Shown piece after piece: positions 11,350 to 27,774 of a stretch of DNA of 32,000 nt. The stretch is from Candidatus Jordarchaeales archaeon (GTDB lineage Archaea; Asgardarchaeota; Jordiarchaeia; Jordiarchaeales; Freyrarchaeaceae). Within the stretch, counting starts at the first letter, position 1. Each line of letters starts with the position of its first letter. Position numbers and translations under genes: made by a program. Below the pieces are notes generated by a model. That model saw only the letters and a program-made list of their open reading frames with translations. It did no database searches and was not told the DNA's origin. The stretch lies in assembly GCA_038889235.1 (NCBI GenBank), contig JAWAHN010000003.1, positions 233,703 through 265,702 of the forward strand, in the 5' to 3' direction.

Positions 11350-11844
11350 TTACCGGCTGGAAGTTTTGGAGAGTTTTAGGGTTAGTTCGGCGAAGCTGCG
11401 CCCGAACTCCCTGCACAACTCCTTGTCTTCCTCGCTCTCCGGCGCTTCTACGACAGCCAGCCCGTAGTGCTTGTCCCTCGGGTTACCCTTAACTATCATA
11501 CCGTGGATTAACATGGCTTGAATTATTGATAGCAGCGTTGTTTCAGCACCTGTCGCCGTGCCACCAGACGTGGTGAAAGCCCCTCCAACCTTACCCTCAA
11601 GCCTGCCGTGGATGGCGATACTCCTGTCAATCAGGTCCTTCACCTTGGCGCTCACCCCACCATAGTACGTCGGCGACCCTATCAATATTCCGTCAGCGCT
11701 CAGTAAATCCTCCAGCTTAACATCGTCAACCCTTTTAACCACACAGTTCACACCTTTAACGCTCTTCACACCCTCAGCTATGAGAAAAGCCGCTTTTTCA
11801 GTGTTCCCCGTCCTCGAATCATAAACCACTAACACGCTCACCAA
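11350..11844 (-). CDS. WrbA-like flavodoxin-fold NAD(P)H oxidoreductase
   Basis: YDSRTGNTEK FMN loop, GSPTYYG and GGAFTTSG. TTG 11844 or GTG 11841 follows a GGAGG RBS. Confidence 0.85.
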   Translation of the reverse strand: MVSVLVVYDSRTGNTEKAAFLIAEGVKSVKGVNCVVKRVDDVKLEDLLSADGILIGSPTYYGGVSAKVKDLIDRSIAIHGRLEGKVGGAFTTSGGTATGAETTLLSIIQAMLIHGMIVKGNPRDKHYGLAVVEAPESEEDKELCREFGRSFAELTLKLSKTSSR

Positions 11845-11943
11845 GATTAAAACCTCCACGAACACTTAAACCTCCAATAGTAAAAAACCCTAATATAAGC
11901 TTCCACCAGACGATTTAAATTCCCGCACCAAACCCTCTGCAAA

Positions 11944-11956
11944 CGATAACTTATCG
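11944..11956. promoter_or_regulatory. Perfect 6-1-6 palindrome CGATAA-C-TTATCG, candidate transcription-factor site
   Basis: Lies in the divergent intergenic region between the wrbA-like gene and six-Cys paralogue A. Its core matches the sites at 22036-22067. Confidence 0.45.
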
Positions 11957-12167
11957 GAAAAGTAAATAAAATATTTAAAAAACAGCCATCTTTATTGAAT
12001 TTTTCGCAATATTATGGCTCTTATATTGTAAATAATTCAATATTTTTTTACCATTAATCAGGTTTTTATAACATCTAATAAGAAAATTTTATTAAAATAG
12101 AAGGCAGTAAAACATTGTGGGGAAAATATTCTGAATTAACAATTAGTAGGAGAATGGAGGTGAAAAG

Positions 12168-12884
12168 TTGACTGGTTTTAACCGGTCTGAGTTTAAAATG
12201 TTTGAGAAAGCCCCCTACGAGACAATTGATGAAAGGACTGAAATGGAGTTAATTACTAGTAGCACTAAGGAATTAGAAAAAATTTATGGTAAAGTTTTTA
12301 CAGTTAAAATTATAGAGTATGCGTTGCGCACAGTAGAGAGGTTTACTGGTGAGAGGCCGAGCGTGGAGATTAACAGTTTGGACGAGCTTAAGGACTACCT
12401 TCTCTTAATTTCAAACAAGCTACCTGTGCCGAGTTACTACGTGATGTTCTGGGCGCAATATGTGACGGAAAAGAAGTTTGAGGGAGGTCTTGGAGTAGGG
12501 TACCAGATCAGCCACAGTGAACTTGCGAAGAAGGCAATTAGCTCGGATGGCATAAAGCCCGAGCAGGCAGCTAACATTGAGGAGGCACTTGCACTACTCC
12601 GCAAGCTGGCTGTTAACATGAAGATAGCGCCCATAGAGTTTGGCTACAAGATAGATGAAGACGGAAACTTATACCTTTACCACGGGGGGTGCGCATTCCT
12701 TAAGGGGTGTAAGATGTCCATGGAGAAAGGAGTGCTGCACAGGCCGGACGGGAGAGTTTCGTGCGGCGTCACGATTTTCGTGTGCCAGTTCCTTAAGTCG
12801 GCTACTAAGCAAGAGTGGGATCACACACTTCTAGAGTTCAACGAGAAGGAAAAGTACTGTATAGTGAAGTGCACCCCGATTTAG
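12168..12884 (+). CDS. Hypothetical six-cysteine protein (paralogue A), possibly V4R/MetOD1-like C-terminal domain
   Basis: 238-aa ORF with a GGAGGTG RBS. Aligns end to end with 24499..25203, including C-x5-C-x17-C-x6-C-x24-C-x3-C. Confidence 0.8.
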   Translation: MTGFNRSEFKMFEKAPYETIDERTEMELITSSTKELEKIYGKVFTVKIIEYALRTVERFTGERPSVEINSLDELKDYLLLISNKLPVPSYYVMFWAQYVTEKKFEGGLGVGYQISHSELAKKAISSDGIKPEQAANIEEALALLRKLAVNMKIAPIEFGYKIDEDGNLYLYHGGCAFLKGCKMSMEKGVLHRPDGRVSCGVTIFVCQFLKSATKQEWDHTLLEFNEKEKYCIVKCTPI

Positions 12885-13091
12885 AGGGCGAAGTGTGGGG
12901 GAATTTAGGGCGCTTAAACATGAGTAATTGAAGGTGGTGATAAAGACATTAATGCCGCTCTTTTGTCTGTCTTTTGTTGCTTTTGAGATCTAGGGCGAAC
13001 GTTTTTAAAGTAAGTATTGACTCCTAGTTTTAAAGGCACTTCTAGATAGGTATGCATAGAGTTCGTTGAGTGGGAAAAGAGGCTGGTTGCT

Positions 13092-14282
13092 TTGAAGTAC
13101 GTCGTTATAGTAGGGGATGGTATGGCTGACTATCCCCTCGACGAACTGGGCGGTAAGACTCCTTTGCAGATTGCCCGTAAGCCAAACATGGACATGGTCG
13201 CCTGTAGGGGTAAATGCGGCTTGCTGAAGGCTATTCCTGAAGGGTTGCCAGCTGGATCCGACGTGGCCATCTTGTCCATTCTGGGTTATGACCCGGAGAA
13301 GTATTACACTGGGCGTGGGCCGATAGAGGCCGCCGCCTTGGGTGTGGAGCTCCGGGATGGAGACGTTGCCTTCCGCTGCAACCTGGTGACTTTGGAGGGA
13401 GGTGTGATGGCGGATTACAGTGCGGGGCACATTAGTAGCGGCGAGGCGAGGGAGCTCATCAACGCTCTCAACGAGGAGATTGGAAGCGGCTCCGTGAGGT
13501 TTTACAGCGGTGTGAGTTACAGGAATATCCTAGTCATTTCTGGTGGGAGGTTTGAGGGGTTAGAGTGCACCCCTCCTCACGACATAACGGGTATGAGAGT
13601 GGAGGAATACCTTCCGAGGGGGGAGGGGAGCGAGCTGCTACTGGAGCTAATGAGGGCTGCGCAGAGGGTGCTTGAAGAGCACCCGGTTAACGTTAGGAGG
13701 GTTAGAGAGGGGAAGAGGCCGGCGAACTCTATATGGCCGTGGGGTTACGGGGTGAAGCCTAGGCTGCAGCGCTTCGAGGAGAGATTTGGGGTTCGCGGGG
13801 CCATAATTTCGGCTGTAGACTTGGTTAGGGGGCTTGGAGTGCTCACTGGACTGAGGGTTGTTAACGTCCCCGGTGCCACAGGGTACTACGACACGAACTA
13901 CGCTGGGAAGGGCGAGTACGCGTTAAAAGCTCTAGAAGACGTGGATTTCGTGCTCGTTCACGTTGAGGCGCCGGATGAGGCGGGGCACGCTGGAGACATA
14001 GAGAACAAGGTGAAAGCCATAGAGAGAATAGATAGCGAAATTCTTGGGAGGGTGTTGAGGGAAATAGACACCATTAGCAGCGACTACAGGGTGGCGGTGT
14101 TAGCCGACCACCCGACCCCCATAGTCAAGAGGACGCACACGCGTGACCCGTCGCCCGTGGCTGTTCTTTCAAGCAACGAAGATGGGGACGAGGTTGAAGG
14201 CTTCGACGAGTTCTCCGTCAGGAGGGGGAGTCTAGGGTTGATAAGGGGACATGATTTCATGAGCCGCTTCATAGGACGCTGA
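13092..14282 (+). CDS. apgM: ApgM-family cofactor-independent phosphoglycerate mutase-like enzyme (alkaline phosphatase superfamily; TIGR02535-like)
   Basis: GDGMAD, GKTPLQ, GSDVA (phospho-Ser), HVEAPDEAGH and DHPTP metal ligands. The exact substrate is not established. Confidence 0.8.
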   Translation: MKYVVIVGDGMADYPLDELGGKTPLQIARKPNMDMVACRGKCGLLKAIPEGLPAGSDVAILSILGYDPEKYYTGRGPIEAAALGVELRDGDVAFRCNLVTLEGGVMADYSAGHISSGEARELINALNEEIGSGSVRFYSGVSYRNILVISGGRFEGLECTPPHDITGMRVEEYLPRGEGSELLLELMRAAQRVLEEHPVNVRRVREGKRPANSIWPWGYGVKPRLQRFEERFGVRGAIISAVDLVRGLGVLTGLRVVNVPGATGYYDTNYAGKGEYALKALEDVDFVLVHVEAPDEAGHAGDIENKVKAIERIDSEILGRVLREIDTISSDYRVAVLADHPTPIVKRTHTRDPSPVAVLSSNEDGDEVEGFDEFSVRRGSLGLIRGHDFMSRFIGR

Positions 14283-14907
14283 GCGACACCTGTGTTTCGA
14301 GGAGCTTCTCGGCAACCTCTAACTCCTCCCTGGTATTCACGTTTACCGCAAACTCCTTGAAGCTTGACTTGAAATAGCACTCTTCAAGCACCCCCCCAGA
14401 CGCCAACTTTACGCCGTCGACCACGTTAACCCCGGATGGAACGAAGTCCTCTCCGTCTATTTTCATGACCAAGGTGGGCTTCAATCCTAAGCTAACTACG
14501 AGCTGTAGGGGGACGACCGCTACAAGCGACGACTTACCACATGTAAAGAAGTAGTCGACTACAGCGTCGAGCAGCGCCTCTCTGAGCAGGGGCATGTCTG
14601 CCGGGCACACTAGTATAACCTGAGACTTTATCTGAGCGGCAGCATACCTGAGGTCTTCAACGTATCCAGCCCCCGGGGTTTGCACAAGCTGGACAGACCC
14701 CCTCCAAGCTTCCTCCAAGTGGCGTTTGGTGTTCGGAGTGTGGGGGCTCACCGCAACGTAAACTCTTTTCACCGAGACCGCTTGCCTCACGGCTGTCACC
14801 ACGTAGTCTATCATGGGTCGCCCCTTAAGCCGAGCCATGGGCTTCTCCGCCACGCCAAACCTCGACCCAATTCCTCCAGCCATTATTAACCCGTCGACTT
14901 TACGCAA
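14269..14907 (-). CDS. cobY: GTP:adenosylcobinamide-phosphate guanylyltransferase
   Basis: MAGGIGSRF...EKPM NTP-transferase motif, PADMP and NVNT; directly downstream of cobS. Confidence 0.85.
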   Translation of the reverse strand: MRKVDGLIMAGGIGSRFGVAEKPMARLKGRPMIDYVVTAVRQAVSVKRVYVAVSPHTPNTKRHLEEAWRGSVQLVQTPGAGYVEDLRYAAAQIKSQVILVCPADMPLLREALLDAVVDYFFTCGKSSLVAVVPLQLVVSLGLKPTLVMKIDGEDFVPSGVNVVDGVKLASGGVLEECYFKSSFKEFAVNVNTREELEVAEKLLETQVSLSVL

Positions 14908-15685
14908 GTGTAACCACCAACACCGTTATGAGTAGGGGGATTCTCGAAAGCTCACGGCAAGCCCCCAGAGCGTCTCCGGTCACGCAGCCGAAAACCCTGT
15001 TCGACAGATATGCCACAGCCAGCCCCACCGCAACGCTCACCGCAAGCGAGAGGGGTATGAGGGGGGCGAGCTCGTATGATGTGGAAAGGCTCAAAAGGTG
15101 CGCCGACGCGGCGAAGAGAAGGGATGCTAGTGCTACTGAGATGGCTAGGGAGGCTAACAGATCCTTCCAGCTGACGTTTTCAGCGAAAAAGCTTCCAAGA
15201 CCCGATCCACTGGGCTTCCCCGCGCATGCGCAAGCGAGCATCGAGTTCGTGCAAGCCAGCTCGACAATGAACGCTGAAAGCAAAGCGTAAACCCACGGTA
15301 TACTACTATAGAGTGCAAGGGAGGACACGGTGACCAGTAGGGCTACAGCTACTCCGCCCGCACCCACATGCACGTCCTTCATCGCTCTCAGCTTCTCCTC
15401 CCTGCCTCCGACAGCCGTTAACCCGTCTCCGAAGTCGACAAGACCATCCATGTGCAAGAACCCGTTGAAGACATTTACAACCAGGAGTGTCAGGGCGGCT
15501 GAGGGCAGAGGGGGGAGCAGAAGACCGGTAACTGTTAATGTTGCGCCGGCTAGGAGACCGTAAAAGGCTCCAACCACAGAGGTTAAGGCGAGGTAGCCGG
15601 CCGCCTTATCAAGCGAGCCCGTGTGCTTCAGAGGGATTACGGTGAAGAAGGAGAAGAGTAGTTTTAGGGAGTTCCAGGCGCCCAT
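14900..15685 (-). CDS. cobS: Adenosylcobinamide-GDP ribazoletransferase (cobalamin synthase)
   Basis: Membrane protein with GFLHMDGLVDFGDG, MKDVHVGAGG and GCVTGDALGA. Confidence 0.92.
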   Translation of the reverse strand: MGAWNSLKLLFSFFTVIPLKHTGSLDKAAGYLALTSVVGAFYGLLAGATLTVTGLLLPPLPSAALTLLVVNVFNGFLHMDGLVDFGDGLTAVGGREEKLRAMKDVHVGAGGVAVALLVTVSSLALYSSIPWVYALLSAFIVELACTNSMLACACAGKPSGSGLGSFFAENVSWKDLLASLAISVALASLLFAASAHLLSLSTSYELAPLIPLSLAVSVAVGLAVAYLSNRVFGCVTGDALGACRELSRIPLLITVLVVTLA

Positions 15686-15695
15686 GCGATGCACC

Positions 15696-16778
15696 TTACC
15701 TCTCAGAGTATATTTTCGACATCACACCGCCGACGAGAGACGCCACCACGTCGTCTAGGAACGGGCCTAGCAACGAGATAATGCCGGGCTTCTTTCTGTC
15801 ATACCTAACGTAGTTGAAAACCCCCCTAGCCCCTGCGATGTAGTCTGCTATGGCCATTCCTATCATCTCGTCCGCTAAAAGGTGCACGGCGTCCCTTCTA
15901 AACTCTTCAGCGCTCAATCCGTGTATCAGCCCACTACCTCCCAAGTCTTCTAAGTGGACAGCCGAGGCGACCAGAGCGTTAATGTTCACGTCTCCGGCCA
16001 GCTTGCCCAGCTCTTCCACGAACCGCTTCCTCACCTCTTCAGTGCTCATCTCGGAGTGGGGGACGTGGAGGGCGAGCGCGGCTTCAGCCATGTCCTCCAC
16101 TGTCACCCCACGCTCCCTCAACTTTTCTATGAAACTCCTACTTCTCACCTCTCCAGCCTTAAGAAGAGACTCTGTTAAGGCGTCCCTGACAGCACGGGAT
16201 ATCAAGGCGCCGGCGGTGGTCGCGGTTCCAGTGTACCTTAACCCGTTGCTTCTGTCGGGGCACGCGACTACAACAGCGTCCGTCGAGGTTCCCCCTGCGT
16301 CGAAGCCGAGGCTCCTTAGGGCGAGGCATTTGGCTTCCGTCACCGTGATAACTGCGTTGACGAGGCCCTCGTCGGTAAGCGCACTGTTAATGAAGACGAC
16401 GATGTTAATCGTTCCAGCCGCTTGAGCACTACTTCTAGCGGGGGGGCTGCCGGCTACCAGGGCGTTTGAGGTTCCAGCGGTCACAACAGCGGTCACGCTC
16501 AAACCGTTAGCGGAGTAGTTTTTAACAGTGAGTACCTCTTTCACTTTCGCCGCGGTCATTAAGCCGGCAAGCCTACCCTTCAAGTTCAACTTTCTGATTG
16601 CGGCGCGCAAGTCTTCCTCCGGCGTTTCGGAGGAGTAGTCAATGGGAACCTGAACTATTAGTGCTCCATTGATCCTCGTTATTCCAGGTTCGAGGACCGC
16701 GGAGCTTATAGCCCTACTCTCCTCCGGGAAAACTATCAAGGCGCACTTTTCGTCCGGGAAGCTCACACTCAAATCCAC
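15696..16778 (-). CDS. cbiS: Bifunctional adenosylcobinamide amidohydrolase / alpha-ribazole-phosphate phosphatase (CbiZ-CobZ fusion, CbiS-like)
   Basis: N-domain GLMTAA, TAGTSNA, GTINI and GTSTD (CbiZ). C-domain ADEMIGMAIADYIAG...RYDRKKPGI...GPFLDD (archaeal CobZ). Confidence 0.85.
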   Translation of the reverse strand: MDLSVSFPDEKCALIVFPEESRAISSAVLEPGITRINGALIVQVPIDYSSETPEEDLRAAIRKLNLKGRLAGLMTAAKVKEVLTVKNYSANGLSVTAVVTAGTSNALVAGSPPARSSAQAAGTINIVVFINSALTDEGLVNAVITVTEAKCLALRSLGFDAGGTSTDAVVVACPDRSNGLRYTGTATTAGALISRAVRDALTESLLKAGEVRSRSFIEKLRERGVTVEDMAEAALALHVPHSEMSTEEVRKRFVEELGKLAGDVNINALVASAVHLEDLGGSGLIHGLSAEEFRRDAVHLLADEMIGMAIADYIAGARGVFNYVRYDRKKPGIISLLGPFLDDVVASLVGGVMSKIYSER

Positions 16779-16782
16779 TCTC

Positions 16783-17784
16783 TCACCTCAGCAAGCTTAT
16801 GAGCATAACCACGAGGCTCTCCAAATAGCCCTGCACGGCGAAACCAGCGGCCAGCGATATGGGGGATAAGGTGAAGTAGAAGAGGATGCATGCGAGACGC
16901 ATTATCTTCACTGATGTCAACGCTTCCTTTACCCCAGGGTACTGGTACTCCGCTCCTAGGACGTGTTTCCCCCTCTTCTCCAATCGGACTCTAAGCGCTC
17001 CGGCTACCGCGGACATAGGCCACCCACCGTTGGGGCTCTCGGTCTTACCGTGATCTCTCAGAGCGATTCTAACACAGTTCCTCCAATCGGCTTTGAGGAG
17101 CATGGATGCAAGGACTATGAAGGGCAGGGAGATCCTCGCTGGCACAAAGTTTAGCGCGTCGTCAAGCCTAGCAGAAGCCCACCCGACGTTTATGTGAAAG
17201 TCGTCTTTGTACCCGACCGTGGAGTCGAGGGTGTTTACCACCCTGTAGAACACCGCTCCTGGGACACCTGCCAAAACAAAGAAGAAGACCGGGGCGCAGA
17301 ACCCGTCAACTATGCTTTCAGAAGTACTTTCGACCGCGGCTGAAAGGATGAGGGGGCCGTCAAGGTTGCTCACGTCGCGTCCAACTATTCGCGAAACGTA
17401 AAACCTTGCTCCCGGGATGTCGCCCTCCGCCACCTTCAATATCACCGGTTTAGCGTGTTGCTCCATGTCCCTTATCGCGAACGAGAGTTTTAGAATATAG
17501 GCCGAGGCTAGAACCCAGGCAGCCTTACCTAGAAGTGACTTCACAAGTGAGAGGAGTAGCACGGTGAGAGATGAGAAGAGGAGTGGCAGGAGAAGCGCTA
17601 GGGCGGCGCCTGCAAGCCTTTCGACGGAACGGTTTCCCCTAGGTATTCTGGCGTCAATCCACGAAGCTAGGACGCCTGCCCAGTGCGTTGGGTGTATGGC
17701 CCTGGGTGGCTCGCCGAAAAACAAGTCGATCACCAAGGCTAAAGCTACTATGGATGCGAGGTAGAAGCATTCTGGCGGCTCCAC
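16783..17784 (-). CDS. cbiB: Adenosylcobinamide-phosphate synthase
   Basis: GEPP...HPTHWAG, ESIVDG, YRVVNTLDSTVGY, ARLDDALNFVPAR and SPNGGWPM. Confidence 0.93.
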   Translation of the reverse strand: MEPPECFYLASIVALALVIDLFFGEPPRAIHPTHWAGVLASWIDARIPRGNRSVERLAGAALALLLPLLFSSLTVLLLSLVKSLLGKAAWVLASAYILKLSFAIRDMEQHAKPVILKVAEGDIPGARFYVSRIVGRDVSNLDGPLILSAAVESTSESIVDGFCAPVFFFVLAGVPGAVFYRVVNTLDSTVGYKDDFHINVGWASARLDDALNFVPARISLPFIVLASMLLKADWRNCVRIALRDHGKTESPNGGWPMSAVAGALRVRLEKRGKHVLGAEYQYPGVKEALTSVKIMRLACILFYFTLSPISLAAGFAVQGYLESLVVMLISLLR

Positions 17785-17801
17785 GCCTAGAACGCCTCCA
17801 G

Positions 17802-18947
17802 CTAAGCTGTCTCCACCTTAAACGCAGCCGCCTGCCTCCGTATACCGTCAGACAGGTTTTTTAAGGCTTCTATGAGAGCGTCGTTCGCCTCTCTCTCCTT
17901 GACGCCAACCCTGATGAACCAAGAGTACTCCTCGCCGAAGGAGCTGCAGTCCCTGACCAGTATCTTGTTTTTAAGCAGCATCGCTTTAACTGTCGTCGCA
18001 TTGACACCCAACTCCTTCACCTTGACAAACAGGAAGTTTGCATCGGGCCTGAAAACAGTGTAGCCGGGAATCTTTGAAACACACTGGTAGAGTCTGTTCT
18101 TCTCACACTCGACGACGCTCACAGTTCTCTCCAGGTACGAGTCACAGTTCCTAAGGAGTTCGACTGCCACAAGCTGCTCGATCACCCCAACCCCCCACGA
18201 GATGCGGAACCTGTCTATGTAGTCTATGAGGCTGCGCCCGCCCACCCCATAACCCACCCTGAGCCCAGGTATGCTAAAGATCTTCGTCAAAGAGCGGGCG
18301 ACGAAAAGGTTTTCGTGTCCTTCCACTTCGTGGAGGCAGGTTGAACGCCTCCCCTCTCTTAGAAAGTCCATGAACGCCTCATCAATGAACACAAGGATTC
18401 CCTTCGCCTCGCACTCCTCCACTACTTCGAGGACCTTCTTTTTCGGCTCAAGCCTGCTCGTCGGGTTATTAGGGTTGCAGAGGAAAACCGCCCTAACATC
18501 TGAGCCGAGCCGCTCGAAAAGAGCGTCAGTGTCAAGAGCGAACTCGTGCTCCTCGCTGAGCGGAACTTCTTCGACGACGCCTCCAGCGAGACGGCAGTAA
18601 TATGCGTACTCGCTGTACGTCGGTTGCTCAACCAACACGCGGTCACCCGGCTCCAAGAACGCTTCTGCGAAAGCTTTTATGAGCTCAGTTGAGCCGCAGC
18701 CGACCGCGATAAGGTCCTCGGCGACACCAATGAAGAGTGAAAGCTCAGATTTTAGGAGACTGCACGAGTCGTCGGGGTAACAGGAAATCTTGTCCAAGCT
18801 GTTCATAACAGCCTTCACGACGTCCACAGGGGGACCCAGAGGGTTAAGGCTGCAGCTGAAATCGAGCACGTCGCCACCATACCTCCAAGCGTCTCCTCCG
18901 TGGCGCGGCCTCTCTATGCCAGCCAGCCACTTTTTGGCGTAAGTCAG
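17802..18947 (-). CDS. cobD: L-threonine-O-3-phosphate decarboxylase (class I PLP enzyme)
   Basis: HGG...LDFSCSLNP, NPNNPT, DEAF and SLTKIFSIPGLRVGY (PLP Lys). The frame extends 26 codons upstream of the track's GTG to a CTG overlapping the btuD stop. Confidence 0.88.
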   Translation of the reverse strand: MTYAKKWLAGIERPRHGGDAWRYGGDVLDFSCSLNPLGPPVDVVKAVMNSLDKISCYPDDSCSLLKSELSLFIGVAEDLIAVGCGSTELIKAFAEAFLEPGDRVLVEQPTYSEYAYYCRLAGGVVEEVPLSEEHEFALDTDALFERLGSDVRAVFLCNPNNPTSRLEPKKKVLEVVEECEAKGILVFIDEAFMDFLREGRRSTCLHEVEGHENLFVARSLTKIFSIPGLRVGYGVGGRSLIDYIDRFRISWGVGVIEQLVAVELLRNCDSYLERTVSVVECEKNRLYQCVSKIPGYTVFRPDANFLFVKVKELGVNATTVKAMLLKNKILVRDCSSFGEEYSWFIRVGVKEREANDALIEALKNLSDGIRRQAAAFKVETA

Positions 18948-19765
18948 CCGTCCTCACCCCTGTCAACGGTGGCCACGGGGATGACGACCAACCCAACGCC
19001 GGGAACCTTTTGGACGAAAGCCCTCACACCGTAGACGTCCTCTATGAGCTCCTCGCTGATAACCTCTTCGGGGCTGCCGCAAGCCACAATTCTCCCCTTC
19101 TTTAACACGACGAGTTTGTCGCAGTACCTCGCCGCTAAGCTGAGCTGGTGCATGGCGGCTATTATAGTCACCCCTTCGTCGGCCAGCTTTCTAAGCATCT
19201 CCATTATTTCGAGCTGGAACCCTATGTCGAGGTATGCTACGGGCTCGTCCACCAGCAGTATTCTAGCCTCCTGGGCAAGCGCTCTGGCGAGCATTACGCG
19301 CTGTTTCTCGCCACTGCTCAGCTCCTCAAGCTTTCTGTTAGCGAAGCGCGAGACTTTCATGCGCTCCATCGCCTTCACTGCGACCTCCTCGTCGCGCTCG
19401 TCCTCCCACCAAACCCCACTAACGTGGGGGTGTCTCCCGAGCAGTACGACGTCCACAACGGGGAGACTTACGTTCGCCGGAAACTCGGATGGGACGAAAG
19501 CACAGACGCGTGCAACATCCAAGGGGGACATTTTGCGCATTTCGCGCCCCTCAAGCATTATGACGCCGCCATGCGGGGTGAGAACCCGGCTGAGGCACTT
19601 TAGCAGGGTGGTTTTACCGGATCCGTTCGGGCCGACGAGCCCGACGAACTCTCCCCTTCTAACCTCGAATGTCAACCCGTCAAGCGCGCTCACAGAATTA
19701 TACCTGTACGAGAGGCCCTCAACGCTTATGACGACTTTTGGTTCACAATTTACCTCACATTCCAT
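18944..19765 (-). CDS. btuD: Cobalamin/corrinoid ABC transporter ATP-binding subunit
   Basis: Walker A GPNGSGKT, signature LSSGEKQR, Walker B LLVDEP and H-loop; FecE/BtuD type in a cob cluster. Confidence 0.88.
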   Translation of the reverse strand: MECEVNCEPKVVISVEGLSYRYNSVSALDGLTFEVRRGEFVGLVGPNGSGKTTLLKCLSRVLTPHGGVIMLEGREMRKMSPLDVARVCAFVPSEFPANVSLPVVDVVLLGRHPHVSGVWWEDERDEEVAVKAMERMKVSRFANRKLEELSSGEKQRVMLARALAQEARILLVDEPVAYLDIGFQLEIMEMLRKLADEGVTIIAAMHQLSLAARYCDKLVVLKKGRIVACGSPEEVISEELIEDVYGVRAFVQKVPGVGLVVIPVATVDRGEDG

Positions 19766-20819
19766 ATTTTCTCCCCTTCTTTATTAAGAGATAAGCGAAA
19801 AAAGGTATTCCGACGAAGGAGGTTATCACGCCTATAGGCAGCTCAACGGGCTTCATGGCAACCCTCGCAAGTATATCTGCGGCCAAGAGGAGGTTTGCCC
19901 CAGAAATGGAAGATAGGGGGAGGAGGAGTCTGTGGTCGTTTCCCAAGGACAGCCTTATCATGTGGGGGATGACGAGGCCCACGAAGCCTATTATCCCGGT
20001 GAAGGCTACGCACACGCTCGCCAGTAGGGCTGCGACGACCATCATCCCCCTTCTGAAGAGCTTAACGTTGACGCCCATCTGCGCCGCTTGCTCGTCCCCA
20101 AGCATGAAGACATTGAAGGTCCTCGCCAGCAGTAAGCAGACGAGTATGAGGGAAACTACTGTGGGGGCGAGAACATATACTTCATCCCACTTCGTGTACG
20201 CGACGCTCCCATAAATCCAGAAGAGAACACCGTGAAGCTCCTTATCACTTGTAACTATTATCAGCGTGGTCATCGATGAGAATGCAACCCCAACTATAAC
20301 TCCGCCAAGGACGAAGCTCAGCGGCGTCTCGCCTGAAGCCCTATAGATGAGGAAGGTGATCGTGAAAGCTGTCAGGCCGCCGGCGAAAGCGGCAACAGAG
20401 AGGGAGACAGACTGGGCGACACCCGTAAGCCACGAGGTCAGCAGGAAGAGAACGGCGCCGAAGGCAGCGCCAGACGAAACCCCACTAATGTAGGGGTCGA
20501 CGAGCGGGTTCCTCACAAGAGCCTGCATTATCGTTCCAGAAACAGCCAAGCCGGAGCCGACGAGAATAGCCGTGATAGTCCTCGGGATCCTAGAATAGTA
20601 TAGTATGGAGTCAAGGGATAGGTCTACGCCGGGCGGCAACAAGCTGCCACTAATAGGTCCACCGAAAATAATAAGCCGGTGGAGAGAGGCGAGAACATCC
20701 CACAGGCTGGCCTCCTTCAACCCAAAAACAAGGGACGAAAGAGAGAGAACGAAAAGGACGACCAAGGAGATAACAGACAACACGATGAGAAGGAGAATCT
20801 TACGCCTAACAACACTCAA
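19755..20819 (-). CDS. btuC: Cobalamin/corrinoid ABC transporter permease (FecCD/BtuC family)
   Basis: RIPR, QALVRNPLVDPYISGVSSGA, GDEQAAQMGVNV, GIIGFVGLVIPH and ELPIGVIT. Confidence 0.9.
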   Translation of the reverse strand: MSVVRRKILLLIVLSVISLVVLFVLSLSSLVFGLKEASLWDVLASLHRLIIFGGPISGSLLPPGVDLSLDSILYYSRIPRTITAILVGSGLAVSGTIMQALVRNPLVDPYISGVSSGAAFGAVLFLLTSWLTGVAQSVSLSVAAFAGGLTAFTITFLIYRASGETPLSFVLGGVIVGVAFSSMTTLIIVTSDKELHGVLFWIYGSVAYTKWDEVYVLAPTVVSLILVCLLLARTFNVFMLGDEQAAQMGVNVKLFRRGMMVVAALLASVCVAFTGIIGFVGLVIPHMIRLSLGNDHRLLLPLSSISGANLLLAADILARVAMKPVELPIGVITSFVGIPFFAYLLIKKGRKYGM

Positions 20820-20831
20820 ATAGCAACCCTC

Positions 20832-22007
20832 CTATACGAAAAAAGAAAAAAAGAGGGGATGGCGGGCGAGACTCATAGCAGGAACAAAGCTCGGTAAACA
20901 AACGTTCTGCGAAACACAACTCGGGCAAGAAGCAGACGACGACTCCAGTATTAGCGAGGAAATGTAGTTTCTGTAGTTGCCGTCATCTATAACATGTGGA
21001 TCTGGGAATGACGCGTTGAAGATTTCTGGGAACAGTATGTGGGCTAGGAGCTCAACGGCTTCAGCAACCCTAGGCCCGGGCCTAGCGAACAGGTTGTCGG
21101 CTTGACCACGGAGGAAGAATATCTTGTTATTCTGGTAGGCTGGAGTGTTGGCGAGAGGAGTGTTAGCCATCTTATTTAGAACCTCACGGGGGTTTAGCAA
21201 CCCGTGGTGGTCCAGTATCACTATTACTTCTGGGTCACTGTAGGCTGCCTTTTCCAGATTCAGATTGTCGCTAATCCACGCTTGATTAATATTGTTGTAT
21301 ATGTTGATGCCGCCTGCCCGCGTTATGATCTCGTTAAGGAAAGTCGGGCTGCCAGTCGTCCAAAGATATCCTCCGTCGATGTCGAGCCAGACGCAGACGA
21401 GCACTTTAACTTGTTGTTGCCCTGAAATTTTTTCATTAACATAGTTTATTTTTTCTCTCATGGCGTTCACGAGTCTCTGGGCTGCTTCCACGCTTCTAGA
21501 GTTTGTGGCGGAGGCGAAGAACGAGCCGAGCTGGTGTATTGTTGACTCTATTTGCTCAAATGACTCGCCGCGGCTGAGTAGGAGGAAGGGTATCCCCTGT
21601 TCTAGGAGTTTCTCCGCTATCTTGAGTTGTGCAGACACGCCTGCGTCCAATAAGACCAAGGTTGGTTTGAGAACTATTATTGATTCTAGGCTGGGGTTCC
21701 ACCAACTTATGTTATTATAGACTTTTCCTGAGGCGATCATTGACTGAAGTTTTGGCGGGTAGTCGCAGTACTTCGTGCAGCCTACTAGGTAGTCTTCGAG
21801 CCCTAAGCCGAAGACTATCTCGGTTATAGAGGGGGCCATGGAGACGACTCTCAGTCCCGTTGGGAAGCCGGTGAACATCAGGTAGGTTGCGGTTATGGTG
21901 TTCAACTGGTTGGCTCTTTGGATGTTCAGCAACATGTATGTTGAGGTAGCGGTCATGCCGACTATGATCACTGCAATCAACAGCGCTGCTACCGAGCGGG
22001 TGTTCAC
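20832..22007 (-). CDS. btuF: Corrinoid ABC transporter substrate-binding protein with N-terminal membrane anchor
   Basis: N-terminal hydrophobic helix, RVVSMAPSITEIVFGLG, GCTKYCDYP, SLESIIVLKPTLV and RPGPR. Confidence 0.85.
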   Translation of the reverse strand: MNTRSVAALLIAVIIVGMTATSTYMLLNIQRANQLNTITATYLMFTGFPTGLRVVSMAPSITEIVFGLGLEDYLVGCTKYCDYPPKLQSMIASGKVYNNISWWNPSLESIIVLKPTLVLLDAGVSAQLKIAEKLLEQGIPFLLLSRGESFEQIESTIHQLGSFFASATNSRSVEAAQRLVNAMREKINYVNEKISGQQQVKVLVCVWLDIDGGYLWTTGSPTFLNEIITRAGGINIYNNINQAWISDNLNLEKAAYSDPEVIVILDHHGLLNPREVLNKMANTPLANTPAYQNNKIFFLRGQADNLFARPGPRVAEAVELLAHILFPEIFNASFPDPHVIDDGNYRNYISSLILESSSASCPSCVSQNVCLPSFVPAMSLARHPLFFSFFV

Positions 22008-22032
22008 TTTAATCCTCCTCCAATAGGTTTAT

Positions 22033-22070
22033 ATAGGATAAACTATCACTTGTGGGATAAATTATCCTAT
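22033..22070. promoter_or_regulatory. Operator-like palindrome in the divergent btuF/cobT promoter
   Basis: ATAGGATAA (22033-22041) and TTATCCTAT (22062-22070) form a 9-bp inverted repeat. It contains tandem 13-mers GGATAAACTATCA (22036-22048) and GGATAAATTATCC (22055-22067). Confidence 0.6.
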
Positions 22071-22134
22071 TAAGGCTCGAAGACTACTTGTATTTAAATG
22101 TTGCGCGTCGAAGTGGAAGCTCCGGGTGATAAAG

Positions 22135-23241
22135 ATGGCTTGGGAAAAGGAGGTTTTGCTGGTTCATAATGAGACGGGTGCGAGGAAGTTTCTCCGAGAG
22201 CTGGAAGGTGAAGAGCCTGTTTTCGTTTGCGTTATAGGGAACACTGAGACGGCGAAGATTCCCGGGATCTCTGCCGCTGGAAGGAATCCGGAGTTGACTG
22301 ATTACACGCCCGCCGCTGACGTCGAACTTCTTTTCTATGGAGAGTGTAAGTGCATTGACGGGGTTCCGGTAACGCCTGAAGGGATTCCGACCCCAGCGCT
22401 CATCACTAGGGCGGCTTTAACTCTTTCCCAGGTGCCGGTCTTCGTCGTTAACGGTGGGGTTAGGGTTAAGCCGCTCGTCCCCTTCATTGAGCTTGGGGGT
22501 AGCCCGGGTGAGGACATAAGGACTGGGCGGGCTGTTAGAGACGCGGGGAGGGTTATTGAGAGGGCTGAGATAGCTGGGCGGAGTTTTTCGAAGGTCGCGG
22601 ACTACATTGTTGTTGGTGAAAGCGTTCCTGGAGGGACTACGACCGCTCTCGGAGTGCTGCTCGCGATGGGTGTCGACGCTAGGGGTATGGTCAGCAGCAG
22701 CATGTCTGAGAACCCCCATGGGTTGAAGGAGCGAGTCGTCGAGGAGGGGTTAAGGGCTGCCGGGGTTAAGCCGGGCGACTTGAAGGATGACCCTGTAGCG
22801 GCTGTCTCGGCTGTGGGTGACCCTATGATGGCTGCTTTTGCCGGCTTCGTAGTTGGAGCGGCGTTGAACAGGCCTGTGCTTATGGCTGGTGGTACGCAGA
22901 TGGCTGCCGTGCTCTCGGTTGTTAGGGGGCTGAAGCCCGAGGTTTTGGACAATGTAGCTATAGGAACCACTAGGTGGATAGCTCAGGATAGGACCTCGAA
23001 CATAAGGAGATTGGTGTCCCAGATATGGGATGTGCCGGTGGTTGCCGCCAACCTAGACTTCTCGGCCTCGGAGATAGAGGGGCTGAGGGCTTACGAGAAG
23101 GGAGTGGTTAAGGAGGGCGTAGGTGCAGGGGGCGCGACTATAAGCGCAGTACTCAAGACGGAGGGGAAAGTCACGTGTGACGAAGTCAGGAAGATGGTTG
23201 AAAAAGAGTACAGAAGACTGGTCGGAGGACGCGTAAAATAG
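22135..23241 (+). CDS. cobT: Nicotinate-nucleotide--dimethylbenzimidazole phosphoribosyltransferase, archaeal type
   Basis: IPGISAAG...TPAADVELL, GESVPGGTTTALGVL, GDPMM, LMAGGTQM and KEGVGAGG. Confidence 0.9.
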   Translation: MAWEKEVLLVHNETGARKFLRELEGEEPVFVCVIGNTETAKIPGISAAGRNPELTDYTPAADVELLFYGECKCIDGVPVTPEGIPTPALITRAALTLSQVPVFVVNGGVRVKPLVPFIELGGSPGEDIRTGRAVRDAGRVIERAEIAGRSFSKVADYIVVGESVPGGTTTALGVLLAMGVDARGMVSSSMSENPHGLKERVVEEGLRAAGVKPGDLKDDPVAAVSAVGDPMMAAFAGFVVGAALNRPVLMAGGTQMAAVLSVVRGLKPEVLDNVAIGTTRWIAQDRTSNIRRLVSQIWDVPVVAANLDFSASEIEGLRAYEKGVVKEGVGAGGATISAVLKTEGKVTCDEVRKMVEKEYRRLVGGRVK

Positions 23242-23291
23242 GTGGGGTGCGAGAGGGGCTTAGAAGTCGCCGGCCTGCATGGTAAAAGGTG

Positions 23292-24122
23292 TTAGAGGTG
23301 TTTTTCGAGCCATTCTTCGAGGTCGCTTAGGGGTTTTTCTTTCCCAATTTCGTTGTATACTTCGTGGCGGTATCCTTCGTAGACTTTGAGCGTCTTATCC
23401 TTGGATGGGATAATCTCGTAGAGGTCTTTAGCGCTTCCAGGTTCGAACGCGATGTCGGCGCTTCCAACCTGTATGAGGCATGGTACGTTTATTTTCGTTG
23501 CTTCCTTCGCTGCTCTAAAAGTGCTGTAGTAGACTTCTGCTAGCAGGCGCGCGCTCGCCTTCTTCGAAACCAGCGGGTCGTTCACGTACGCTTCAACAAC
23601 TTTCTCATCCCTGCTTATGAACGATGGATCCCATGGAAGAGCGAACTTAGCTTTTGGCGCGGCTCTCGCTATTAAGGCTAAGAGCGCTTTCACCAGGGGT
23701 GAAACTTTCCCGGGACGTGCCCCCGTTCCTGAAAGTATCAGGCCAGCTATCCCCTCTGGGTATTTTGCCATGTAGAGCATAGCTATTAGGCTCCCCATGG
23801 AGTGTCCAAGCATGAAGATCTTTTTCCTCCTCTCTTTCTCCCGGACGAGGCTGACGAACAGCTTTAGGTCTTCGACGAACTCTTCGAAGCGCTTCACGTG
23901 CGCCCTCTCACCTTCGGATTTCCCGTGCCCTCTATGGTCTAGAGCGTAGACCGCGTAGCCCTTAGGTACAAGCTGGTTGACGACGTTCATGTACCTTCCA
24001 GAGTGCTCGACGAGGCCATGGACAACGACGACCACAGCCTTGCTCGCCCCATCGGGCTTCCAAACCTGGTAATAAAGCTTGGTTTTATCATACCCCTCGA
24101 AAAATCCCTCTTCATGCTTCAC
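23292..24122 (-). CDS. Alpha/beta-hydrolase, lysophospholipase / monoacylglycerol lipase family
   Basis: VHGLVEHSGRY, DHRGHG, nucleophile GHSMG, GSAD and YRHEVYNE. GTG 24122 follows a GGAGGAGG RBS. Confidence 0.88.
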   Translation of the reverse strand: MKHEEGFFEGYDKTKLYYQVWKPDGASKAVVVVVHGLVEHSGRYMNVVNQLVPKGYAVYALDHRGHGKSEGERAHVKRFEEFVEDLKLFVSLVREKERRKKIFMLGHSMGSLIAMLYMAKYPEGIAGLILSGTGARPGKVSPLVKALLALIARAAPKAKFALPWDPSFISRDEKVVEAYVNDPLVSKKASARLLAEVYYSTFRAAKEATKINVPCLIQVGSADIAFEPGSAKDLYEIIPSKDKTLKVYEGYRHEVYNEIGKEKPLSDLEEWLEKHL

Positions 24123-24498
24123 GAAAAACCCTCCTCCGGGTATCCTAAAAGGCAGACTTCTCATAATTAAGAGGGAGCGTCAATTTAAGATTTTTGTTCA
24201 AAAACACTTAACCCTTGAAGCCTCCTTTCCCGAAAAAGGGAGAAGGGGCTGCTGGCTTTGCAGTCCCTTAAAACGCCGAGGGCGAATGGTGGAACTGAGG
24301 GCGCAAAATTTCAGCCGAACACTTTTCCTAAAACAGGCTAAGCACTTCTCTTAGTTAACGAGAAATTTGCCGGGTAGGCGTTCGCCGTCTCAGATTTAAG
24401 ACGGTTTTGTAAGTAGTTCTGGTGAACACCTGTTTTCCTTAATTGTTAGCTGAGGGAACTTATATAGCCTTTTTAGTTGGATGGCCCAAGAAAGTAGT

Positions 24499-25203
24499 TT
24501 AGACTTTGAAGCACCGGACTATGCACAAAGGCTTTTCGAAAAATGTGACTGTGTAATCCCACTTTTCTCCCGACGCTTTCTCGAAAAGCTTGCAGATGCA
24601 CGCCGAGAAACCGCACACCATTCTTCCGTCAGCCCTTTTTGAAAGACCCTTTTCTAGGGACATTCGGCATCCGTCTTGAAGGTAACAGTTCCTGTATGCG
24701 AGGTCAACGCTTCCGTCATCGTTTTTCCGATAACCCATTTCAATTGGGGCAATTTTTATTTTAAGCATTATTTCGCGAGCAGCCGAGATGACGGAGTCAA
24801 CGTCGAGTCCCACAAGCTGGTTCCCCATTTTATCGATTACGTACTTAGAGATGCCCATGTCCAACATGTGTTCTCCAACGCCTAGAGCTCCTTCCAACTT
24901 GTTTACCGTCACGAAGTGGGCCCATATGATTATGTAGTCTGGGCGTATCCTGCCGGACTTCGAAAGCAGGTAGGCTGCCGCATCATCCAACGTTCTAATC
25001 TCCTCAACGGGAGATTCGCCCGTCAGCTTCGTAACAGCCCTTTGAACATACTTAATAACCATGCGAGTTAAAACATCCCCGTAGATTTTCTCCTCCTCTT
25101 TTAAACCACTAACGAACACGTCGAGGAAGGATTTCATATCAGGTAGCTCACTTTCCCCCTTCTCAAGCATTATAAAGCCTGATTCCAACACCGGCACCTC
25201 CAA
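24499..25203 (-). CDS. Hypothetical six-cysteine protein (paralogue B)
   Basis: Colinear with 12168..12884; C-x5-C-x17-C-x6-C-x22-C-x3-C. The true start is probably GTG 25191 or TTG 25188, after GGAGGTG. Confidence 0.8.
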   Translation of the reverse strand: MEVPVLESGFIMLEKGESELPDMKSFLDVFVSGLKEEEKIYGDVLTRMVIKYVQRAVTKLTGESPVEEIRTLDDAAAYLLSKSGRIRPDYIIIWAHFVTVNKLEGALGVGEHMLDMGISKYVIDKMGNQLVGLDVDSVISAAREIMLKIKIAPIEMGYRKNDDGSVDLAYRNCYLQDGCRMSLEKGLSKRADGRMVCGFSACICKLFEKASGEKWDYTVTFFEKPLCIVRCFKV

Positions 25204-25238
25204 AAACTATTTTCAGAAAAAAAGAGATATAGTTTTTG
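25201..25238. promoter_or_regulatory. 10-bp inverted repeat CAAAAACTAT-N18-ATAGTTTTTG just upstream of paralogue B
   Basis: Arms at 25201-25210 and 25229-25238 are exact reverse complements and abut the RBS. Confidence 0.45.
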
Positions 25239-25565
25239 CAACGACAAGTTAAACCAATTGTCTAAAAACGAACATGCTTCACAATAATCACAATTTGAAA
25301 ATTCCTTTTAAAGAAAAATTCATACATTACGTTATTTTATTCAACAAAACGATAAGTGTAAAGTTTCTTTTATGAGAAAACGAGTGAGCTTGGCTCTTTA
25401 CACAAACGGTACACTCTTATTTCCGCATGTTTTTTCATCTGCACAATTTTTCCCATCTATTAGCCTGCTGAGTCTCTTTGAGAACTAGTAACTGAAATAA
25501 GAAACAGTGACTTTAACACACTCAGCATTATGACATTTACAGCATTATAAAAAAGGAGGAGGGGG

Positions 25566-26147
25566 TTAGTTAGCCCATGCTATGAGGTATGTGTCGGCGT
25601 CATCGAATATTTCTTGTGGAGCGACCCCGTAAGCGTATGTCCATGACCATCCGGGGTTGGCGTCTATGTCAGGTCCGCCAACAGCTAAGTAAGATGCCCA
25701 TGCTAGTTCGCTGCAGTAATAGCTGCTTCCGTAGACTTGTTTTGTCACCCATACGACGTCGTATGGTTTACCCAGTTGGGCGAGCGCGAAGTTCACGGCG
25801 GCTTGCTTGATCGCATTAGACGTTGCGACTCTCAAAATGCATGCTTCATCGTTGTTGTGTATCTCTGTAGCTGGAGTGAGCTTCACTTCCCACGAGGTTG
25901 CCTCAATAGTCCAGCCGTTTCCTATGTATATCATTGTGTGCGTCCAGTAGCCAGGAATAATGTAGTCGAATTTGCTTCCTCTAGTCAGTATTATGTCTCC
26001 AACCTCTAAAAGGCTTAAGTTCAAGTTGTTCTGTCCATCACCCTTTGTGAGAGCTGCAACATTGGCGGTCATCCCAGCCACGGCCAATGCGAAAAACATC
26101 GATAGAATCACTAGAAATAGCAAGACTGCAGAACATCTCCTCCTCAG
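25566..26147 (-). CDS. Secreted permuted NlpC/P60 (YiiX/YebB-like papain-fold) protein
   Basis: GDIIL...WTHTMIYIG (His) precedes LGKPYD...YYCSEL (Cys), the permuted order; N-terminal signal peptide. Start is CTG 26147 or TTG 26123. Confidence 0.8.
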   Translation of the reverse strand: MRRRCSAVLLFLVILSMFFALAVAGMTANVAALTKGDGQNNLNLSLLEVGDIILTRGSKFDYIIPGYWTHTMIYIGNGWTIEATSWEVKLTPATEIHNNDEACILRVATSNAIKQAAVNFALAQLGKPYDVVWVTKQVYGSSYYCSELAWASYLAVGGPDIDANPGWSWTYAYGVAPQEIFDDADTYLIAWAN

Positions 26148-26669
26148 GCCACACTCCTCCCAGGTATTTCTCCGAAACGGTTTATAGTTAACTGCGATGA
26201 AACAATTATTTAAATTCTAACATTTATTTTGACTTATATGTCAATTATATGTTTGTAATATTTTATGATCCATAGTATTAATGTGTATTAATAGTTTGTT
26301 TCTTGATGAAGGGTATTTAACGTTGTTGCCTATTTTGATTAGAGGTTGTAATTAGAAGGTTGGTTTGTTTCAAACAGATGGCGCGTGTTGCAGGTTTCGG
26401 CTTTTTGTGTTGTAGAAAGCCGGCTTTGTTAAACTGTTTTTTATGGGGCTGTCTTTAGAACCCTCTTTGAGCTACTTAGTCACAGCCTAAGAAGTTGTCA
26501 AGCTAGTCGTTTAGCTTAATACGATGCAAACTGAAATTTTAAAACAGGCGTGAGTTCAAAAGTAGGCGGCGTAGTCCTCTCCTAAACTATGCGGTTTTGT
26601 TTTTCCAAAAACTTAGGAACATAGGATGGCGTCGGGTTAGGCGAAAAAGGGTGATGGGTTTTGGTGGAG

Positions 26670-27570
26670 GCCACCACTTTTCTCTTTCTTGTGCTTTATG
26701 TCTTATGTATATGTGGCTGTTATGGTGAATATTAGGACGAAGAGTAGTAGGGTTAAGGGCTATCCCGTGTCGTATGCTGAGTGTTTCAGAGGAATAGGGG
26801 GTGTGGATTGTCATGTAGTATATGCGTCATGGCTGAGTCAAATACTGTTTTAGGGTAGAAGCCAGTTTGAATCGCCGCGGCGGCTGTAAATAGAATCGCT
26901 ACGGTTTCACCTATTATTCTGCCTATTCCGAGTATAATTCCTGTCGCGATTCCGGGCGAAGCTACGGGTATGGTTACTATGGATTGCCATTTAGTGGCGC
27001 CCAGTGATAGGCTTGCCTCCCTGAAGGACTTTGGTACGCTAAGTAGAGCTACATTGGTGCTTTTGACTATTATTGGAAGAGCCATGAAGCCGAGAACCGA
27101 CCAGCCGACGACCAGGCTTGGCCCGGCACCCGAGATTGGGTCTGCTCCTATCCTGAGTTCTTTGATGAAGAGTGAGAGGCCGAAAAGCCCGAAATATTAT
27201 TGATGGAACCCCAGCTAGATTGTTTATGACTTGGTTGAGAAACTACTTCACTTCTCCTTTGGTAAGGTACTCGGTGAAGTATATTTGAGGCCATGACTCC
27301 CGGTGGGACGGCTATCGCCATTGCCCCGGTGATCAATGCAAATGTTCCGAAGATCATTGGGGCTATTTCTCTGGCTCGCATGTTGAGGTACGGGTCGGAC
27401 AGCAGGAAAGACGGGAAATTGGAGGCGAAAGCATCCCAGCCGTAGTACACTACGACGGCCAGGATTAATGTGAAGACTGCTAATGCTAGGAGAGTTGGTA
27501 TCGCTATGAGAACGTTTCCGAGTGAGCTCAGCAGGCTTCCATGGTTTGTGGTTGACGCCTTTTCACCCAA
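26670..27570 (-). pseudogene. pstA: Decayed phosphate ABC transporter permease PstA
   Basis: Pieces in different frames: IAPMIFGT, IYFTEY..K*FLNQVINNLAGVPSIIF, GLFG, LPIIVK...VPKSFREASLSLGATKWQ, GIILGIGRIIGET and a C-terminal transmembrane segment. Several frameshifts and an in-frame TAG. Left boundary approximate. Confidence 0.85.
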
Positions 27571-27573
27571 TGT

Positions 27574-27774
27574 TTAGGACCTCCTAACCTCCAATTTTGA
27601 GAAGCGAAAAATGATGTACTCCGCCGTCGAGTTGATCAGATAAGTCATCACGAAGAGGACGAAGCCTATTCCGAGCAGAGACTGGTAGTGCATGCTGTTC
27701 CATGAGGACTCTCCAACCTCTAGGGCTATGAGGGCCATCATCAAGTAGACGGAACCCAGAAATACCTCTTTCAA
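27574..27774 (-). pseudogene. pstC: 3' remnant of phosphate ABC transporter permease PstC
   Basis: LIALEVGE...HYQSLLGIGFVLFVMTYLIN matches the PstC C-terminus and sits directly upstream of pstA. No recognisable N-terminal part. Confidence 0.7.

Follow-up and report, generated by a model that had tools for sequence, protein, structure and literature searches.

Introduction

Asgard V4R and TRAPPC3-like proteins have come under discussion as possible precursors of the vesicle-tethering subunits of eukaryotes. V4R proteins are commonly found in archaea as stand-alone forms, and MetOD1, HNOB (H-NOX), V4R and ATC hydrolase have been grouped into one superfamily with a conserved cysteine cluster (Galperin et al. 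2018, PMC5847659). In the TRAPPC3/Bet3-like protein of Thorarchaeota (Thor-TRAPPC3) a zinc ion is held by four cysteines, much as in PoxR; where the ligands sit varies across the superfamily, but in all cases the zinc site links the sheet with a helix and gives the ligand cavity its shape (PMC10933270). Here, we describe two genes (P0001 and P0002) that flank a cobamide uptake and salvage cluster on a 32,000-nucleotide stretch of DNA from a Candidatus Jordarchaeales archaeon (assembly GCA_038889235.1, contig JAWAHN010000003.1; the whole stretch is called the window below). Both encode members of an unnamed multi-copy Asgard family that is predicted to adopt the H-NOX/V4R/TRAPPC3 fold, and four cysteines are invariant in this family.

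Results

Two paralogues of an unnamed Asgard family

The two genes of interest are:

12168..12884, plus strand: left paralogue P0001, 238 residues (open reading frame and translation), predicted stand-alone H-NOX/V4R-fold protein
24499..25203, minus strand: right paralogue P0002, 234 residues as listed, same predicted fold family

When we compared the two proteins by BLASTP, we obtained 37% identity across 229 residues (E 2e-53). A first-pass annotation, made from the DNA alone, had reported a number of common motifs, and all of them were recovered in both proteins (KE-x-EKIYG, TGE-x-P, WA-x2-VT-x2-K-x-EG-x-LGVG, KIAPIE-x-GY, MS-x-EKG, R-x-DGR, WD). The cysteine spacing C-x5-C-x17-C-x6-C-x24/22-C-x3-C is also found in P0001 and P0002 alike, and P0002 carries a seventh cysteine within the x6 stretch. 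As had been noted before, no helix-turn-helix (HTH) is evident, and no other Pfam or NCBIfam domain was found in either protein. P0001 and P0002 are true paralogues of an unnamed, Asgard-specific, multi-copy family of small proteins.

Among 1.84 billion representative proteins searched, only 96 clusters belong to this family. It is present in 14 of the 121 Asgard genomes sampled, which are all members of three of the 26 families covered, and was not found in the remaining families. These lineages are the Jord- and Freyarchaeia (one order) and the Atabeyarchaeia, and within the order of the window's genome, all genomes searched from its two families contain homologues. The copy number ranges from 3 to about 42: the window's genome has 4 copies, the complete Freyarchaeial genome 42 matches in 21 loci, Atabeyarchaeia-1 has 7 and the other genomes 3 to 22. 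Tandem arrays of three to six separately spaced genes with spacers of 300-500 bp are common. Arrays of five to six genes were observed on a Freyarchaeota contig (L019, 2226-8603) and at G001:C1:3170404-3175852 and 686650-694480; their spacers are AT-rich and contain TATA-like boxes followed by short AT palindromes. Related genomes also carry several family pseudogenes with internal stops.

The phylogenetic tree contains two subfamilies. P0001 and P0002 fall into different well-supported clades, each of which also contains members from other genomes, and they are therefore old paralogues; a recent local duplication of the flanking pair was rejected on the same grounds. Horizontal acquisition of the genes as 'orphans' is unsupported as well, since their guanine plus cytosine (GC) content (45.7% and 47.2%) is near that of the genome (48.2%) and homologues are so regularly present in the two families of the order. 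The Freyarchaeia/Atabeyarchaeia genome paper mentions neither V4R nor this protein family. One of the metagenome-assembled genomes bears the NCBI title 'Thermoproteota archaeon isolate S9B3_HD70'; this phylum label looks wrong because the genome is placed in the window genome's taxonomic family and carries members of the protein family.

Predicted fold and known relatives

An AlphaFold (AF2) model of P0001 was built from 18 homologues. It reached a predicted local distance difference test score of 88 and a predicted template modelling score of 0.84, and has two lobes, helical at the N-terminus and alpha/beta at the C-terminus. Exhaustive structural comparison with VIA-align placed H-NOX (4u99_A) at the top, with a root-mean-square deviation of 4.4 over 168 residues (model residues 14-228 against chain residues 1-179), and yielded the following Z-scores:

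H-NOX 4u99_A: 10.6
Thor-TRAPPC3 7yh2: 8.7
BcsD: 8.2
V4R protein MJ1460 (2oso): 7.9
PoxR sensor domain: 6.9
DmpR sensor domain: 6.8

Foldseek agreed and gave a probability of 0.99 to 2oso. The two-layer alpha/beta fold of V4R with its four-stranded sheet is matched over the C-terminal lobe (2oso, PoxR). From the ESM Atlas we obtained RdxA_C, V4R, ATC_hydrolase and MetOD1 clusters as neighbours, the MetOD1-containing cluster with a template modelling score of only 0.45, and the feature and shape neighbours take in ATC_hydrolase and DUF6125 clusters. Profile-profile alignment (hhalign) of the family with 11 canonical Asgard V4R proteins, a single comparison with a small home-made profile, yielded a probability of 82.5% (E 1e-5, 145 columns). 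In this alignment the cysteine of the family's 'SCG' pairs with the first V4R zinc ligand, the last cysteine with the last ligand and the glutamate of 'LEF' with the V4R glutamate. Structure prediction and fold searches bear out the earlier guess of a V4R/MetOD1-like ligand- or metal-binding fold, and the V4R profile match points the same way. P0001 is predicted to take a two-lobed H-NOX/V4R/TRAPPC3 fold, and on the strength of this model we place the family in the HNOB (H-NOX)/V4R/ATC-hydrolase/MetOD1 superfamily.

Sequence searches do not reach these relatives. Pfam V4R (PF02830) matched neither P0001 nor P0002 at E<=1 nor any of 44 members at E<=0.1; the genuine V4R genes elsewhere in the window are recognised by this model. 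ATC_hydrolase (PF14196) is the only Pfam family touched by any member, with weak matches in 5 of the 44 members at E<=0.1 (best 5.7e-4) and none for P0001 and P0002, and no Pfam model passes its cut-off. MetOD1 (PF18546) matched neither the two proteins nor the 44 members. A PDB sequence search with the family profile returned nothing useful (best E 0.31), and the same was true with a V4R protein of the window as query. No longer fused forms were found, which is weak evidence, and the homodimer prediction with two copies of the P0001 alignment (score 0.03, mark 0.42) speaks neither for nor against a dimer.

With V4R (MJ1460/2oso and the PoxR/MopR/DmpR sensor domains) the family shares the C-terminal alpha/beta lobe with aligned first and last zinc-ligand cysteines and glutamate. 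However, its N-terminal helical lobe is longer, the protein as a whole is H-NOX-like, and a fused HTH or AAA+ output domain is missing. H-NOX (HNOB, PF07700) is the best whole-chain structural match over both lobes, is of the same size class and also occurs stand-alone, but the family lacks a sequence match to it, the conserved proximal histidine and the YxSxR propionate motif, and has a four-cysteine site that H-NOX does not have. The TRAPPC3/Bet3-like protein of Thorarchaeota (7yh2/7yh3) resembles the family in its fold and its Asgard origin, and its four-cysteine zinc site tethers the sheet to a helix and makes a cavity (PMC10933270), whereas the four invariant cysteines of the family are known from sequence. 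There is no detectable sequence similarity between the two, they come from other lineages, and the family proteins are larger, have an additional N-terminal lobe and occur in tens of copies. MetOD1 and ATC_hydrolase/DUF6125 have in common with the family an HNOB-like secondary structure and a conserved cysteine cluster (PMC5847659). Unlike MetOD1, the family is not fused to receiver domains and is found in Asgard archaea rather than in methanogens, and the similarity of P0001 and P0002 to ATC_hydrolase is below any cut-off. The methanogen-specific V4R regulator MsvR is a precedent for functional (redox) V4R cysteines (PMC3729527), but it has an N-terminal HTH and three V4R cysteines, whereas the family has no DNA-binding domain.

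Cysteines and the putative metal site

The six cysteines described in the first-pass annotation as invariant are indeed shared by P0001 and P0002, but across 94 family sequences only four reach 100%: C175, C181, C199 and C231 (P0001 numbering). The remaining two, Cys206 and Cys235 of P0001, are restricted to the subfamily and conserved at 47% and 22%. The suggestion that the proteins contain more cysteines than a single zinc site needs fails for this reason. In the same alignment no column has histidine above 30%, and apart from cysteines only G41, Y77, G106, G195 and D218 reach a conservation of at least 80%. In the model, one invariant cysteine lies just before and one inside the helix that follows strand 2, another at the start of the next helix and the last one in the last strand. 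The canonical V4R pattern, C ... E-x2-C-x7-C, is not reproduced, since its middle cysteine is missing and two other invariant cysteines (C-x5-C) are located upstream. Four ligands are the number required for one tetrahedral metal site, and by analogy with the solved relatives this is most likely a structural Zn(Cys)4 site.

Position of the paralogues at the cobamide genes

The cluster between P0001 and P0002 is a real cobamide uptake and salvage cluster. It comprises:

14269..22007, minus strand: cobamide uptake/salvage operon (btuF, btuC, btuD, cobD, cbiB, cbiZ with a PgpA/CobZ-like part, cobS, cobY-like; Pfam)
22126..23241, plus strand: CobT-like (DBI_PRT) gene, divergent from btuF (Pfam E 1.3e-8), whose orthologue in the sister species shares 76% identity

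In Candidatus Jordarchaeum sp. LHC_1308 (the sister species) the operon is syntenic, and an orthologue of P0001 with 77% identity occupies the same site beside it. In contrast, P0002 is not there: the right flank of the sister reads btuF, cobT-like, hydrolase, C92 peptidase, ilvD. Both 24499-25203 and about 26100-30100 are missing from the sister synteny, and hydrolase, C92 peptidase and ilvD are contiguous in that species. The P0002 side of the cluster is a variable region, and the closest homologue of P0002 (65% identity) comes from another genus, where it adjoins a tandem V4R gene. We found no cob genes near the homologues at 11 loci from other genomes, and with the CbiZ of the window as query no match was obtained in the Freyarchaeial genome with 42 matches. 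Because P0002 is absent in the sister, the other loci lack cob genes and the 42-match genome lacks a CbiZ match, the bracket is not a conserved arrangement. The proposed connection with B12 salvage does not hold for this family as a whole. Its many paralogues are scattered largely without cob linkage, a pattern that the first-pass annotation had itself named as refuting its idea, and the only conserved cob/btu linkage is that of the P0001 orthologue in one sister species. The bracketing position is a species-level accident and not a family trait.

Corrinoid-dependent methyltransferase genes

A weaker and broader link was observed, in that copies of the family appear to lie near corrinoid-dependent methyltransferase genes more often than expected by chance, which is what remains of the proposed B12 connection. 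Of the other two copies in the window's genome, one has an MtrH gene and the other an MtaA-like gene at a distance of 0.3-1.2 kb, and the MtrH gene is followed by MttB, a corrinoid protein and RACo. The chance of corrinoid-gene adjacency for both of these copies was calculated as 3e-4 to 1e-3, and in the Freyarchaeial genome four of six MtaA/CmuA-family loci have a copy within 5 kb (permutation p about 3e-4), with both subfamilies represented, but these p-values are only indicative because we chose the gene sets with the data already in view. Adjacency to MtaA-like genes was repeated in two further genomes. Neither the B12-binding genes alone (p 0.2) nor the MtrH genes alone were enriched in the Freyarchaeial genome, where URO-D, B12-binding and MtrH genes are all lacking within 5 kb of about three quarters of the loci, and no association with corrinoid methyltransferase genes was detected in Atabeyarchaeia. 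Other recurrent neighbours in Freyarchaeia are short-chain dehydrogenases, alpha/beta hydrolases and CoA ligases. Members of the family tend to be neighbours of B12-dependent methyltransferase genes.

A complete non-methanogenic methyltransferase set is present in a single locus of the window's own genome (C3, about 140-152 kb), which contains genes for an Lrp-type HTH protein, paralogue 3, MtrH, a thermosome, a corrinoid protein, an MttB-family methyltransferase and a RACo-type activator. The trio of Lrp, paralogue and MtrH is kept in three related genomes.

Gene starts and upstream regions

The upstream regions of the two genes and the divergent neighbour of P0001 are:

11866..12167, no strand: divergent promoter region common to the flavodoxin/WrbA-like gene (minus) and P0001 (plus), 28% GC
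25204..25565, no strand: intergenic region upstream of P0002, 32% GC
11350..11865, minus strand: flavodoxin/WrbA-like gene, divergent from P0001, a pairing kept in the sister species

The start of P0001 as first read is right, since GGAGGTG is located 5 nt upstream of its TTG and the N-terminus 'SEFKMFEKAPY' is kept in homologues. For P0002 the real start is more likely a few codons inside the listed open reading frame, at the GTG/TTG at 25191/25188 after GGAGGTG. The genes face inward toward the cluster and follow AT-rich leaders of about 300 bp or more, as was described earlier; the exact lengths are 302 bp for P0001 and 362 bp for P0002, with GC contents well below the 48% of the genome. 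Inverted repeats are present upstream of both genes, and those upstream of P0002 are the weaker ones. Upstream of P0001 we found a 20-nt inverted repeat (11993-12042, 85% complementary) with the arms TTATTGAATTT and TTATATTGTAAAT, which are conserved with the sister species while the remainder of the region has diverged. Rfam gave no family at gathering score anywhere within the window, the cobalamin riboswitch included, and the folding stability of the leaders did not exceed that of shuffles (z -0.9 and +1.4). The idea of a riboswitch or leader RNA was dropped because the Rfam scan was empty and the leaders are not unusually structured. All-against-all BLAST of the upstream regions revealed likeness only among recent tandem copies and no family-wide motif. 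Downstream of P0001, a T-rich stretch (12958-12987) and then a TATA-like box follow the stop codon, from which we infer that the gene is probably transcribed as a monocistronic unit.

The palindrome GATAA-N-TTATC has four exact sites in the 2.14-Mb genome, and the reversed control pattern has none. The sites are:

11945..11955, no strand: exact palindrome GATAACTTATC in the flavodoxin/P0001 intergenic region
22037..22066, no strand: palindrome pair in the btuF/cobT-like divergent promoter, one exact and one with 1 mismatch
C1:168802-168812 and C2:288134-288144: remaining exact sites in the window's own genome

The exact copy in the btuF/cobT-like promoter is kept at the same place in the sister species. 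A third exact site lies between an RHH_1 gene (C1:168828-169436), which it directly follows, and an operon encoding a corrinoid protein, an MtaA-like protein, an MFS transporter and MtrH, and the fourth is found in an unrelated promoter. Three of the four exact sites are thus at corrinoid-related promoters if the P0001/flavodoxin region is counted among them. This pattern suggests that GATAA-N-TTATC may mark a riboswitch-independent corrinoid regulon, and the RHH protein is a possible regulator of these sites. The distance from the GATAACTTATC site to the start of the flavodoxin gene is 80 bp, against 213 bp to that of P0001, and the sister species does not have the site in front of its P0001 orthologue. 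For both reasons it does not clearly govern P0001. Neither the palindrome nor a structured RNA was found in the region upstream of P0002.

Other genes in the window

Two more genes lie between the paralogues:

13092..14282, plus strand: ApgM-like metalloenzyme, downstream of P0001 and convergent with cobY (Pfam)
23292..24164, minus strand: alpha/beta hydrolase (Hydrolase_4), downstream of P0002

The ApgM-like gene abuts cobY, and its synteny with the cob cluster is preserved in the sister species. Its product scores above cut-off for both NCBIfam PRK04200 (cofactor-independent phosphoglycerate mutase) and TIGR02535 ('proposed homoserine kinase'), and it could be the source of the phospho-amino acid that is decarboxylated by CobD for the cobamide linker. 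CbiZ (15696-16778, minus strand) has a C-terminal PgpA-type phosphatase domain, which makes it a CbiZ-CobZ-like fusion. At 1149-3653 (minus strand) the window contains a pair of overlapping canonical V4R genes of the stand-alone type, both showing the C/E/C/C zinc pattern, upstream of a MoxR/AAA_5 ATPase gene; this overlapping pair recurs in another Jordarchaeales genome.

Discussion

The explanation that we consider best, with a probability of roughly 45%, is a lineage-specific, much-duplicated family of stand-alone ligand-binding sensor or carrier modules with a structural four-cysteine metal site. The two genes would be independent, separately transcribed members of a stand-alone family of about 235 residues, and the four invariant cysteines would hold one structural metal ion, presumably zinc. 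As in Thor-TRAPPC3 and PoxR/MopR, this ion would fasten the sheet onto the helices and hold open a cavity for the ligand. The proteins would be non-catalytic small-molecule binders that exert their effect via partner proteins, with ligands that differ from paralogue to paralogue; as their recurrent neighbours this proposal has MtaA-type and MtrH corrinoid-dependent methyltransferase genes together with catabolic enzymes. Several points weigh against it. The best structural match, H-NOX, is a tetrapyrrole binder, and all four copies in the genome adjoin corrinoid-related genes, an arrangement not expected of a generic binder. Moreover, ATC hydrolase, a related family, is an enzyme, and in these strict anaerobes the four cysteines could equally well carry an Fe-S cluster.

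In a rival explanation, the proteins would be binders of corrinoids or other tetrapyrroles, with an H-NOX-like pocket for cobinamide, cobalamin or methyl-corrinoid, and would serve as chaperones or sensors for salvage and for the MtaA/MtrH systems. The top structural matches are heme-binding H-NOX domains that extend across both lobes, and each of the four genome copies lies by corrinoid genes (the cob cluster twice, MtrH with MttB, corrinoid protein and RACo, and the MtaA-like gene). The copies at four of six MtaA-like loci in Freyarchaeia, the similar arrangement in two further genomes and the three palindromes at corrinoid promoters, again with the P0001/flavodoxin region included, also fit this idea. 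However, no conserved histidine or other evident axial ligand and no YxSxR motif is seen in the 94 sequences, and most Freyarchaeial loci as well as Atabeyarchaeia lack the association. B12-binding genes by themselves show no enrichment, the choice of gene sets was post hoc, P0002 is absent from the cob flank of the sister, and the palindrome is nearer to the flavodoxin gene and not conserved at the P0001 orthologue. We regard such a function as unlikely, and a corrinoid-related ligand is a live minority option. Even less probable is the extended version, according to which the whole family would be a hitherto unrecognised corrinoid-handling accessory class, made up of H-NOX-like tetrapyrrole binders that deliver, sense or protect cobamides for MtaA/MtrH systems and salvage, that diversified massively in Jord- and Freyarchaeia and whose left copy, P0001, would belong to a putative riboswitch-independent corrinoid regulon with GATAA-N-TTATC as its mark.

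The four cysteines might alternatively hold an iron-sulfur cluster of the [4Fe-4S] or [2Fe-2S] type, or switch reversibly to disulfides, which has been proposed for the MsvR V4R domain, and report the redox state to partner proteins. Four invariant cysteines in strictly anaerobic archaea, the flavodoxin gene as conserved divergent neighbour of P0001 and the V4R cysteines of MsvR, which modulate redox-dependent DNA binding (PMC3729527), are consistent with such a role, as is a weak FixX ferredoxin-like NCBIfam match of P0002 (E 7e-4, far below cut-off). On the other hand, C-x5-C-x17-C-x31-C is no known Fe-S motif, two cysteines and the glutamate align with V4R zinc ligands, and the solved relatives carry zinc (PMC10933270). 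No DNA-binding or other output domain was found, and forty redox sensors in a single genome are hard to rationalise, so that we consider this role improbable. Least probable of all appears to us that the proteins are ATC-hydrolase-related enzymes for small heterocyclic or thio-compounds, with paralogues specialised to the substrates of the catabolic neighbours. The idea draws on PF14196 as the sole Pfam family touched, on the ATC_hydrolase and DUF6125 clusters among the Atlas neighbours and on the short-chain dehydrogenases, alpha/beta hydrolases and CoA ligases that are often encoded nearby in Freyarchaeia. Nevertheless, the PF14196 matches are weak and limited to few members, a metal coordinated wholly by cysteines would leave no open catalytic site, and G41, Y77, G106, G195 and D218 form no evident catalytic set. 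Searching the literature for ATC hydrolase in combination with methyltransferase returned nothing.

For the biology of these archaea, our data describe a sister branch of the V4R/TRAPPC3 superfamily that has expanded in three Asgard lineages, reaching tens of copies per genome. They also call for caution, as a flanking position seen in one genome failed the comparison with a sister species. If the family members are ligand sensors or carriers, they would mark the small molecules handled by these uncultured wetland and hot-spring archaea, and such molecules may include substrates of non-methanogenic methyltransferase systems.

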